A stretch of DNA of 63,879 bases, filler included, from Rhabdomonas costata (taxonomy: Eukaryota), in the NCBI GenBank assembly GCA_019059605.1. It is 29 parts of 29 records of this genome, joined end to end, with 100 filler letters (N's around TTAATTAATTAA, not from the genome) between each part and the next. Parts side by side here need not be neighbours in the genome. Positions count along the whole stretch, not along the records: positions 11,075 to 13,205 come from JAHMHO010005517.1; 28 more parts are not named here. One strand, 5' to 3'. The notes under the pieces were generated by a model, which had not been told where the DNA came from, did not search any database, and saw nothing but the letters and a program-made list of their open reading frames with translations. Every line of letters begins with the position of its first letter. The stretch's first letter is position 1. Shown piece after piece: positions 9,362 through 13,333 of the stretch. The position numbers and the translations under genes were made by a program.

Positions 9362-10806
9362 CTTGTCTGTGCCAAACTCGTACTTCGTGTCAATGAACAT
9401 GAGGCCTTGCTTCGCAAGCAGCTCCGCACCACGCTTAAAGAGCTTCAGAGATGCCTCTCGAACCTAAAGGGAATAAAAAAGCCGTGGCACCACAAAAAGA
9501 AGTTCGACAATAGTGCGCACTAGAAAACGTGGTCGGGTGCGAGAGGGCAGTCTTGGCAAAAAAAAAACAGGCCCATTAGCACCCGCACGACAAATTAACA
9601 AATTAAATGCGCCCACCCAGTAATTGAACGAGGCATGCCCGAGAAGACCGGGTGTCATACCACAGATTCGATGTTACTGCTGCTGTTTTAGTGTCTATTT
9701 TCGAGCAGTACTAATATGCGAGTATTCAATCTTCGGTTTTGATGTTTTGATGTTTTGATGAGTGTTTCAGCTCTCGGAGCCTCCCCTTCAAGATGAACGA
9801 AATTTCATCCGATCGAAAATTCGGGAAGGGCCAGGATGGAAAATTAAAACGCACGAACATTGATGCCAATACGGTGACCGACTGTGTTGTGCACAAGGTT
9901 CGGCAGTGAACGCCCAACCACCAAGGCATCCCACCTCATTGGCCAGCGCTGGCCCTATCATCTTCGTGACTTCCTCCATTGTGATGTTCTCATCGTGCTC
10001 GCCAATCTCGGCCTTGGTGGTGGGGGTGAAGATGGGGGTGTCAAACTTCTGGTATCTCAGCAGGCCATCCGGAACGCTCAGCCTAACCACCCGATGTGCG
10101 ATGTGGTGAAAAAAAAAGAAAGAGAAGGCGTGTTTTTTTTCTCGTTTCGGAACGAAAGAGTCCCAATGTGAACTTCATGGTCGCGTCCGTCATTTATCTT
10201 CACGTTGTCGTTTGGTGCACTCCGTTTCTCACGAAACCCAGTTAGCTCCATGCCCTCCTATTTCTGAAGTTCCGGAGACGTAAATGGAAAAAAGTCCGAC
10301 TGAGTCGGATATAATCAATTGGCAAAAGTTCCCATCCCCAGAGGGATTCAAAAGACGAAAGTATCCGAGCAGATACCCACAAATGGTACGCTCGCCCTTC
10401 TCATAACCAGCGGCCATGCTGCCCCAGAGGTAACCGCGGACTATGCACTCCACCCCGATGTTCTTCATCTTCTTTTGGACGACGACATTGGGATCTGCAA
10501 GCCAAGCCCGCACAAAGGCACGCGAAACAAGCGCAGACCCGTCTTGGCAACAAGCAGAAACTAATACGTACCGATGTCCTCGGAAACCAAGGCATTGGGC
10601 ACGATGTCGCGAGTATTTTGAAAAGCCCAAAACGTGATCCTGTTCAAAATTTCCCCTTTGAATGGAATCAGGTTCGGCAAGACGTAGTCAAAGGCTGAAA
10701 CCCTGTCGCTGGCGATCATAATCACCTTGTCTTCTGTAACGTAAATGTCCCGCACCTTGCCCTTCTTAACACGGCCAAGCTCAGGAATCACACAGCTTCC
10801 AAGAGC
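9362..10806 (-). CDS. ADE1: SAICAR synthase (partial; exons 10806-10572, 10494-10377, 10082-9935, 9463-9362)
   Basis: Motifs GKVRDIY, SDRVSAFD, IPFKGEILN, ECIVRGYLWGS, PIFTPTTKAEIGEHDENI and FIDTKYEFG. Junctions are GT-AG and in phase. Confidence 0.95.
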
Positions 10807-11074
10807 CTGAAGAACACGAAAAAATAATTTTGAAAAGTTAATAAGAAACGCGCTTCACCCATCTAACCCTCCTAACCCCCATTTCCCTGAAAGCACCGCT
10901 ACAATAAAGCGGCAAAATTTTACAGAGAGACAAAAATTACTGAGTGTAATCATTCTTTCGATCCCCACACCCACNNNNNNNNNNNNNNNNNNNNNNNNNN
11001 NNNNNNNNNNNNNNNNNNTTAATTAATTAANNNNNNNNNNNNNNNNNNNNNNNNNNNNNNNNNNNNNNNNNNNN

Positions 11075-12680
11075 ATGCAGGAATACCCTGGGGTTCGTGA
11101 GCGAGTGGAGGCAGCTTATGCTGGGGGAACGAGTGAACCACTGCACTTCGGGAGGAAGGATGCGAGGTAGCGAGCATCCTGACGACCAGCTATCTACTCC
11201 ACTCTGTCGGCATGCCCCTCGGTCCCTCGGGTCAGCCTCTCCTCTTCTTCTTTCTTCACTCCTTAGGGCCCCCACGAACGCAGTGAGTGGGGTATCTGTA
11301 GAAGGTGAATGCATGTAAGCGGCTTATGCCGGTGGAATGCATGAACCATCACTTCGGGAGGAAGGATACGAACGCAGTGAGCATCCTGACGACCAGCTAT
11401 CTACTCCACTGTCGGGTCTCTCAGTCCTTCGAGCCCCTCCCACTCTTACATCTTCTATACGTGTCTCTCCTCTCCACTCCCCCACCATAAGGTGCGTACG
11501 TGGAGATCCGACCGGGCGAAGCCACGCAGGAATACCCTCGGGTTGGGTTTCACTTGCGGAGGGGATGTCGAGACCTTGGTCGAGGCATCCACGACAGTAG
11601 AAGCATGCATTTTACCAACGTATCCTCATCGTTGGGTATCTTGCTTCTGTGTCGGTCCCTCCCTCACGGTCGGGCCCTCCAACCCCACACTCACTACCCT
11701 TACGCATCTTCCTTGCATCAGGATAGCCCCTCGGATGGCAGTAGAAGGGTGAGCATGGGAGTAGCAGCATCAACGTAAGCATGGTGCCTTACGCTTCAGC
11801 CTTCACTCCCACTCTCACTCTCTACTCCCAACGTGGCATGGTGGACAGAAGCGGAGGTTGTGGGAAGTGGGCTGATGACATAGCGTACCGTTGCAGTAGC
11901 GCTAATGGCAGCATCCTACCCCTCACTCTCCCTCTGTCACCTTCCACGGTCACGGGTTGCAACGTTGGTAGTGGAGGGTAATGCATAGCGTCAATGCTTA
12001 GCGTATGTGCTACTATGCATACCGTACCACTATTACCGCTACATCCACGGGTTGGCAGCTCCTGTTGGGGTTCGGGTACTGTGGTGTGAGTAGAGTAGGC
12101 ATTGCTGCTGATACGCTACCGTTAACCACTTACCTCAACCACCAACAGTGAGTGCGTGATTCGGGTGGTAGGGTGTGAGTAGTGTAAGCATAGCTGCCGA
12201 TACGCTACCGGTTACCCCTCACCTCAATCACTTCCCTCGTGTGGGTTGAGTGGGTTTATTGTCCCCTACGGTGAGTTTCGCAGGCTCACTGCAGGTCGAT
12301 CTTGGGTCACCTACCCAGCACTACTACCCTACGCATATGGTAAGGGTTCATGTCCGCTAGCAGAGGTCATACCACCGTGTCCAACCTGTGGGGTGATGAT
12401 ATGACTCGCCTCTACCCACTACTAACGTACAACCTCAGGTATTGAGTTACGCGCTACGTTGCATAGGCTCCCCGTCGTACCAGCGTTATCACGTGTTTCG
12501 TGTTAGCGAGATCAGTGAGAAACGATGCCAACCCAGGCGTTGAACTTCAGGGTGACCAATCCTTACTACTCAGGACACTGGGAGCGATCGTCGATAAGTT
12601 GTGGAGCACGGAAGTAGCGAGTGGGACAGTAGTGGCATAGCCGTACGCAGCCTTGTTGTTCTAGAGATATCCCGAGGGAC
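11075..12680 (+). ncRNA. Putative highly structured non-coding region: array of long imperfect hairpins, partly duplicated
   Basis: Alternating G-rich and C/T-rich arms pair, with G.U pairs on the + strand. A 32-nt exact repeat sits at 11172 and 11379, and a second repeat pair at about 12071 and 12160. No recognisable protein. Confidence 0.45.
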
Positions 12681-13075
12681 ATCAGCGACACCGAACCCGA
12701 ACCCGAAGACCAAAACCCGAGGCAGAACTCCGACACCATGACACCCTCGCCTTGCAGACACTAACCCACACGCATAAACCCGACACCAAACGCATGAAAC
12801 CACCACCCCACGCATACACCCCAAGACACGAATACACCCACCAACACCACCAGCCTCGAAACCCAAACGCATACACACGAATACCACGAATACCACGAAT
12901 GCCTACACCTACGAACCCAACCCCTACACCAGAAACCCACACCAGAAGGCATAAACCCAGAACCCCAAGACCTGAAGACCAAACCCCTAAGACCTAACCT
13001 CCGAAGAGGAACCCCAAATACCAGAAGGCCAAAACCCAAATGCACGAAAACCCGAAAACTAAAGACCAAAGAGAA
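12680..13075. repeat. Degenerate A/C-rich short-unit repeat tract (ACCCGA/ACACGAAT/CCAGAA-like)
   Basis: Strong A/C strand bias, with repeated accccg, acgaatac and gaagacc words. Confidence 0.75.
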
Positions 13076-13333
13076 ATTCTAAAGGTGGGGGGTCTGGAGA
13101 AAAGATGCCCAGGGTAAGATGGACCCAGGGGTAGACCATGCCTAGGTCCCAGACCCCCCATACCCTACCTACCTGCGGTGCCGAGACAGAGATGGACCAC
13201 CCACCNNNNNNNNNNNNNNNNNNNNNNNNNNNNNNNNNNNNNNNNNNNNTTAATTAATTAANNNNNNNNNNNNNNNNNNNNNNNNNNNNNNNNNNNNNNN
13301 NNNNNGTGTTGGGGTCTCAAGCTTCAGCCTGAC

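Follow-up and report, generated by a model that had tools for sequence, protein, structure and literature searches.

A multi-copy DNA family of probable mitochondrial origin in Rhabdomonas costata and its candidate pieces of LSU rRNA

Mitochondrial rRNA of euglenids is known from one species, Euglena gracilis, with each rRNA in two halves, according to the available portions of PMC4700960. Short gene pieces, including scattered fragments of all protein genes, are thought to be non-functional there, and LSU rRNA sequence is given as undetected in those portions of this 2015 mitochondrial genome paper. A scheme for the euglenid ancestor, as excerpted, has the rRNAs "split to halves" (PMC8130358). 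In Diplonema papillatum, all genes are in modules, rnl consisting of two (534 and 352 nt), on circular chromosomes with constant regions about 95% identical, and the RNAs are joined (PMC3936708, in part). For R. costata itself, UAG as Tyr, UGA as Trp and whole cox1 and cob are described in the accessible text of PMC8219788; the reading of TAG as Tyr in cox1 and cob is already published for a euglenid. That text reports protein genes only, and the terms "rnl", "rns" and "mitochondrial rRNA" have no occurrence in six of its text supplements. No description of the family presented below was found in the literature, most subscription papers lying outside our coverage.

The window analysed here is a stretch of 63,879 nucleotides that strings together 29 unrelated contigs, each about 2.1 kb long, with N linkers between them; the source is an R. 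costata assembly of 97 Mb in 104,289 contigs. One of the 29, at 11075-13205 (G000:C5517), is best explained as all or part of a euglenid mitochondrial DNA molecule. A first-pass annotation had covered its first 1.6 kb and described a gene-less array of long imperfect hairpins. N linkers flank the contig on both sides, so adjoining window sequence is unrelated and gives no linkage information; at window 9900-10880, on the minus strand, lies a spliced nuclear gene with a GT-AG first intron, presumably resembling SAICAR synthetase. The unusual composition reported earlier was reproduced: this is the only one of the 29 contigs without an A/T run of 5 or longer, and its density of TAG, CTA, TAC and GTA (70.4 per kb) is the highest in the window, the next being 59.5.

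G000:C5517 belongs to a multi-copy family. A genome search with the contig returned 53 matches of 72-100% identity, with the best 40 of 445 candidates scored, and partners at 98-100% identity exist in the assembly. An 18-nt motif at 12666-12683 (minus strand) has 235 copies at one mismatch, compared with 5 for a control, and the commonest 15-mer form of the family motif has 52 exact copies. In the contigs retrieved, 121 motif-anchored segments fell into 33 groups, 14 of them with at least two members, and the family comprises 14 or more classes that follow a common plan. The group containing G000:C5517, class "A", accounts for 18 of the 121 segments. Combinations of blocks change between classes, and shared blocks lay on the same strand 23 times out of 23.

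The order of features is given here along the minus strand, the sense strand of the family. A G/C-tract segment 5' of the leader contains a 12-bp perfect inverted repeat (13086-13160). The G/T-rich leader itself (12684-13084, minus; G+T 0.76-0.85) includes a small hairpin with a C-UUCG-G loop (12999-13008, minus) about 310 nt before the family motif. The motif follows. It folds as a YUCG-loop hairpin in 89 of 93 contexts, a figure that owes something to how the search was built, and 80 of the 93 have a minus-strand G.T pair. Loops of the YUCG and C-UUCG-G types are stable in RNA. A C-UUCG-G hairpin stands 20-39 nt before the motif in 29 of 53 contexts; the closing pair of this UUCG-type hairpin is C-G 25 times, A-T 9 times, A.G 11 times and C.T never. 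Immediately after the motif comes class-specific sequence, in G000:C5517 a class "A" head at 12598-12665 (minus), the slot that in sister classes holds the LSU rRNA pieces described below. Heads of class I (L093, L305, L306, L310-L312) and class E (L091, L334-L343) are about 85 and 200 nt long, and G/T-rich DNA resumes at once after them, which makes them look like free-standing genes.

Downstream of the head, a block at 12207-12597 (minus) is common to sister classes with other heads (81% identical in L018, 74% in L275). Within it lie a structured domain found family-wide (12353-12420, minus; two stacked helices, a YGAG bulge and an apical loop, with covarying stems) and a hairpin (12262-12296, minus) whose loop is nearly constant while its stem varies on both sides among copies at 6 of 11 pairs. 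Two tandem hairpin units (12055-12231; repeating every 89 nt and 82% alike across 72 nt) and three long imperfect hairpins (11726-11837, 11840-11941 and 11962-12038), which differ among family members, lead to a distal region shared with other classes (11077-11664, minus), comprising a tandem unit of 449 nt (11077-11525), inside which 207 nt are duplicated, and its lead-in. Several classes run into this common unit, and G000:C5517 starts at its boundary. A molecule end at 11075 was ruled out: the tandem unit boundary there continues in L009 and L011, and the contig starts where a repeat boundary has collapsed. Elsewhere in the family, L079, L090, L089 and L036 share a second, short hairpin block (86-93% over 28-53 nt), about 770-840 nt past the motif, that is absent from G000:C5517. 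In L036, about 266 nt are perfectly duplicated in tandem at 350-634, 3' of the piece termed P below.

When the family was compared with a plan of constant regions around a cassette, the leader, motif and distal repeat were shared, the head was unique and the body was mosaic. The earlier suggestion of an organellar minichromosome fits insofar as a multi-molecule organellar genome with shared regions is concerned; the hairpins, proposed as its constant region, instead occupy the mosaic, class-variable body between two shared regions.

The link to mitochondria comes from cox1 and cob. Matches with in-frame TAG codons numbered 46 for cox1 and 37 for cob in the genome. The best solved relative of cox1 is chain C1 of 8iuf (E 1.7e-88; next 6.7e-59), which we take to be from Euglena gracilis; it has Tyr at all 7 positions aligned to TAG codons. 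The cox1 frame is continuous over 241 aa in one contig, and the cob frames are long. The cox1 and cob copies (L021-L035, L108-L125) number in the dozens and are partial and differing, many being decayed or fused to nuclear-looking DNA. Directly 5' of five of five cox1/cob starts, leader 9-mers of the family cover 12-45% of positions on the sense strand and 0% on the antisense strand, compared with 32% in the leader of G000:C5517 and 6% or less in the window's remaining 28 contigs. The family hairpin motif is absent within 300 nt of six of six cox1/cob starts; the leader there ends in a similar short TGTCTCCGTTGT-like stretch, which replaces the family motif (L063, L064, L028, L111, L123, L125) and is possibly a second class of start signal. 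A mitochondrial origin of the family is highly probable, its location in the mitochondrion being inferred from the shared leader, and leader polarity at cox1 and cob sets the minus strand as its sense strand. The plus strand, taken as sense in the first-pass annotation, is contradicted by this polarity and by that of the rRNA pieces.

To look for rRNA, windowed profiles were used, since neither searches with one E. coli rRNA sequence at a time nor profiles of full length had enough power. The source sequences were 41 bacterial 16S and 23S genes together with LSU loci of mitochondrial type taken from metagenomes, and reverse, complement and reverse-complement sequences served as controls. Scores of at least 12 bits were obtained in 16 of 103 motif-downstream segments, all in sense orientation, with controls at 11.2 or below. 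A mixed profile (controls at most 11.6 bits) distinguished four pieces, all on the sense strand: B, corresponding to E. coli LSU about 2046-2080 (22.2 bits); C, about 2408-2458 (20.0 bits); P, about 2485-2520 (14.6 bits at 2496-2512); and E, about 2539-2620 (28.9 bits at 2546-2600). At the level of sequence, LSU rRNA domain V of mitochondrial type is shown to be present in sister classes of G000:C5517, as four separate pieces. Piece B begins at the 5' strand of H73, directly after the motif, and core C stands 39-44 nt behind the motif in 18 of 20 places, one of the others being at a contig edge and one having no motif. Helix names follow textbook E. coli numbering and were assigned in the present analysis.

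The pieces pair with one another as their E. coli counterparts do. H74, between B and C, has a predicted energy of -19.6 kcal/mol (E. coli -17.3) and was equalled by 0 of 1000 shuffles; H89, between C and P, has -17.5 kcal/mol (E. coli -18.1; 4 of 1000); and H90, between P and E, has -13.5 kcal/mol (E. coli -13.7; 39 of 1000). H73, between B and E, is weak by itself (70 of 1000). Strands of the pieces hybridised with E. coli strands did not beat shuffles; since the native pairs match the E. coli energies and these hybrids fail, the two strands have changed together. Piece E retains H92, with a five-base loop, and H93, and several E copies are decayed, with (GA)n expansions in the H93 loop.

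Further pieces are hinted at by a family-wide scan, in which 12 of 81 conserved rRNA windows matched in sense at p<=0.05, versus 3 in antisense. The head of class K (L303, L268), 17-45 nt after the motif, resembles LSU 1660-1687 (8.9 bits; p=0.01) and is likely a fifth LSU piece. A 530-loop-like 19-mer in a sister class (p=0.04 among 81 tests) is a hint only, and class I weakly resembles the SSU 3' end at a non-significant 6.7 bits. None of the top matches among the 81 windows lay in G000:C5517. Its head reached a best rRNA score of 8.6 bits, within the control range, and rRNA motifs read by eye inside the contig were likewise not upheld, at the same best score. An H61 pairing of G000:C5517 with class K gave p=0.445, an SSU h18 model that finds nuclear SSU at 32.9 bits had no match in the contig, and an unbiased all-against-all pairing scan yielded nothing above null. 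We infer that the class "A" head may be a further rRNA piece too divergent to recognise, which is the weakest step of the argument.

We then considered whether the pieces derive from a joined gene. A pattern spanning C to P had no match, and none of the 11 places of core P, one of which is a chance match, follows the H89 strand of C. Among 225 retrieved contigs, cores at two mismatches were carried by 7 for B, 20 for C, 9 for P and 21 for E, at least one of the E matches being chance, and no contig held two full cores together. Longer rRNA genes were not found elsewhere in this incomplete assembly by a genome search with Rfam that had a strict first look. The assembly, made of short amplified contigs, is very fragmented and contains fold-back chimeras, so a joined rnl could be missing from it. 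One such chimera is in L002, where a nuclear coding stretch at 1780-2232, which we assume to resemble IFT88, ends in a perfect fold-back of the kind that marks amplification chimeras in the assembly; miRNA-like Rfam matches in L002 come from it and were rejected.

Covariation, proposed earlier as a check, was found in 18 copies of 12240-12420, where both sides vary in 14 of 40 pairs (mean among shuffles 5.3; reached in 0 of 500). The structure tested had been drawn by hand on the minus strand from these same copies, which biases it; since the copies are also related to each other, the counts are non-independent and the significance is overstated. RNAalifold on the plus-strand alignment reported 1 of 28 pairs as covarying. 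As a stronger test, on loci that had not contributed to training, a model of the domain at 12353-12420, built from 11 close copies and run on 33 loci, found 14 other loci at E<0.1, all in sense orientation (13 oriented by the motif), with a background of at most 13.1 bits within the window. Identity is 44-69% for the top 13, in which two G-C pairs never change and the stems vary as pairs. At E<0.1 the model had no match in five cox1/cob loci or in nuclear rDNA, and 10 family loci, class C among them, escaped it at E<=1. Part of the structure is under constraint. Selection on a single strand, as first proposed, is backed by covariation, the sense strand being minus and not plus.

Taken together, and judged on sequence evidence, mitochondrial rRNA encoded in many small modules is the best reading, and we regard it as moderately likely. 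A competing account, which we consider unlikely though well short of negligible, is that the family is junk of the Euglena type, consisting of repeats and dead rRNA scraps, with the real rnl and rns, in two halves each, unassembled and the hairpins serving DNA replication or recombination. Piece P is preceded by several different blocks, including cut-down parts of B and C, and these mixed contexts look like recombination debris; together with the decayed copies they speak for this account. Among copies, the rRNA cores are conserved no more than their flanks. Trans pairing would be expected equally from scraps of one real gene, a family-wide G.U asymmetry is absent (below), and rRNA fragments among repeats are what the sister classes contain, the head of G000:C5517 excepted. 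Against it, cox1 and cob scraps are absent from family bodies despite the 46 and 37 matches in the assembly: in 20 bodies, tblastn with these two genes gave nothing better than E about 0.18-0.19. Joined rnl is likewise missing at 20 places of C and 11 of P, the distance from a single motif to the start of pieces B and C is fixed, shared blocks keep the same strand throughout, and one domain retains its structure at about 50% identity.

That the family is a nuclear repeat family, or consists of NUMTs, appears quite improbable. L002, L065 and L088 adjoin nuclear-looking sequence and many copies are decayed, as such an origin would predict, but amplification chimeras, of which the fold-back in L002 is an example, produce joins of this kind too. 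G000:C5517 is free of nuclear-type sequence and has its 98-100% identical partners, and even if some copies were nuclear, their source would be the mitochondrial family.

The hairpins themselves were examined in relation to the original proposal of a polycistronic structured-RNA locus on the plus strand, taken here as a nuclear cluster, for example of snoRNAs. All 14 hairpin arms named in the first-pass annotation were located, and a plus-strand fold of the contig restricted to Watson-Crick pairs had 11 stems of at least 12 pairs. Folding of 11700-12680 was better than that of shuffles on both strands (z -5.2 plus, -4.85 minus; 20 shuffles each), as were five long units (z -2.3 to -5.1 on both strands, for windows picked after inspection). 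The array is limited to about 11726-12420, since 11075-11545, which had been included in it, is the tandem repeat unit and folds like its shuffles (z -0.3 and +0.9). Sliding folds of 150 nt gave a single strong window within 11075-12680, because the hairpin arms span more than 150 nt.

This plus-strand proposal draws on the unit size of 70-110 nt, on a somewhat better fold of the whole span on plus (z -7.0 versus -4.4, with just 10 shuffles) and on the plus-strand G.U pairing noted initially, which is present in the G000:C5517 copy (7 G.T versus 1 A.C) and fails to extend across the family: over 20 members G.T and A.C numbered 95 and 91, without asymmetry, compared with 23 and 8 in an rRNA control. 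In the conserved core at 12240-12420, G.U occupies 51 cells on the minus reading versus 8 on plus, and homologues of the long hairpins have 27 wobble variant pairs on minus versus 11 on plus. Strand-biased mutation could be an alternative cause of the minus-favouring G.U, and among homologues of the long distal hairpins 11 variants are compensatory versus 51 that break pairs. Across copies, the G.U evidence favours the minus strand or neither.

Rfam searches, a check proposed at the outset, gave no match on G000:C5517, and tRNA was likewise not found; the absence of Rfam matches says little about the contig, because Rfam also misses clear rRNA pieces in sister loci. For snoRNAs, covered by Rfam only, there was no match at E<=10 in the core and one weak C/D match in a sister locus (E=1.1). 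The description as gene-less holds for protein genes, none being recognised by eye among 23 stop-to-stop frames of at least 50 aa in the contig, and does not hold for the family, which carries rRNA pieces. By eye, against consensus features, no likeness to a kink-turn, hammerhead or group II intron domain V/VI was seen. With a leader common to cox1 and cob, rRNA pieces of bacterial/mitochondrial type in minus-strand sense and G.U in aligned copies favouring minus, a plus-strand precursor of this kind is very improbable.

A virus- or plasmid-like element or an expanded rDNA spacer, either of which could account for many copies, strong folding and the absence of a protein gene, is hardly tenable, as a 29-nt core had 0 matches in viral contigs and none in phage and plasmid collections, nuclear rDNA lies on other contigs with no match to G000:C5517 better than E=0.82, and the family copies, checked for rDNA-like homogeneity, are just 72-100% alike. 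The nuclear LSU and 5.8S rDNA is on L478 (G000:C37), with the LSU model spanning 5.1 kb, and part of the SSU rDNA is on L477 (G000:C25815); L472 (G000:C5062) and L476 (G000:C63185) carry pieces of bacterial rRNA operons with two tRNAs, their source being a contaminant or an associated bacterium.

Returning to the reading of the family as rRNA modules, we propose that its molecules would act as working rRNA genes. The minus strand would be transcribed through the leader, and the YUCG hairpin would mark a start or cleavage site and so define where each piece has its 5' end. The domain conserved downstream may serve as a common protein-binding or processing signal, and the small RNAs would come together through base pairing, the way they do in Myzozoa and Chlamydomonas, or be joined, as in Diplonema. 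The long distal hairpins would mostly represent a loosely constrained trailer shuffled by recombination. More tentatively, the protein genes may be whole while both rRNA genes are cut into at least a dozen modules, each on its own molecule class behind a YUCG hairpin and mostly ahead of a processing or joining domain; this would be an independent, extreme rRNA fragmentation within Euglenozoa, with G000:C5517 carrying one of the most abundant modules, as yet unrecognised.

In the pieces, LSU core sequence of a euglenid mitochondrion is recognisable and pairs correctly, which makes primers and probes feasible now. It becomes testable whether euglenid fragments are junk or are working modules related to diplonemid modules and kinetoplastid guide RNAs. 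If the pieces work, schemes of euglenozoan mitochondrial evolution, as given in the excerpts of PMC8130358, need one more step, and if extreme fragmentation is true, it would have originated independently inside Euglenozoa with a visible shared processing code.

Among described systems, the family belongs with euglenid mitochondrial DNA, differing from that of E. gracilis as described. Both come from a euglenid with intact protein genes on separate short molecules and a recombining, repeat-rich, unassemblable pool in which rRNA pieces lie among repeats (PMC4700960, available portions). In contrast to that description, domain V alone is here in four pieces behind one motif, the bodies have no cox1 or cob scraps, G+C is about 50%, and there is a conserved structured domain. 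The R. costata mitochondrial pieces in the accessible text of PMC8219788 share the genetic code and whole cox1 and cob with the present genome. With D. papillatum, as far as PMC3936708 was available, the family shares gene pieces on separate molecules with shared regions and a split rnl, whereas cox1 and cob are whole here, the cores measure 35-80 nt and the flanks are mosaic; because cox1 and cob are whole, this is not a diplonemid module system. Many short, trans-pairing rRNA pieces are a likeness to Myzozoa and Chlamydomonas (PMC3268668, PMC8092004 and PMC8660880, each in part), as are, for Myzozoa, shuffled blocks in many contexts and, in Dinophyceae, non-coding inverted repeats (PMC3268668, PMC8092004). 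Those lineages are unrelated, and their pieces are shown as RNA; the parts of PMC3268668 and PMC8092004 consulted do not mention a start hairpin or a downstream domain common to their pieces. Pairing in trans, the mark of functional fragmented rRNA, was found for H74, H89 and H90 and weakly for H73. By analogy, the family would work most like Myzozoa in its pairing and most like Diplonema in its shared regions around a unique piece.
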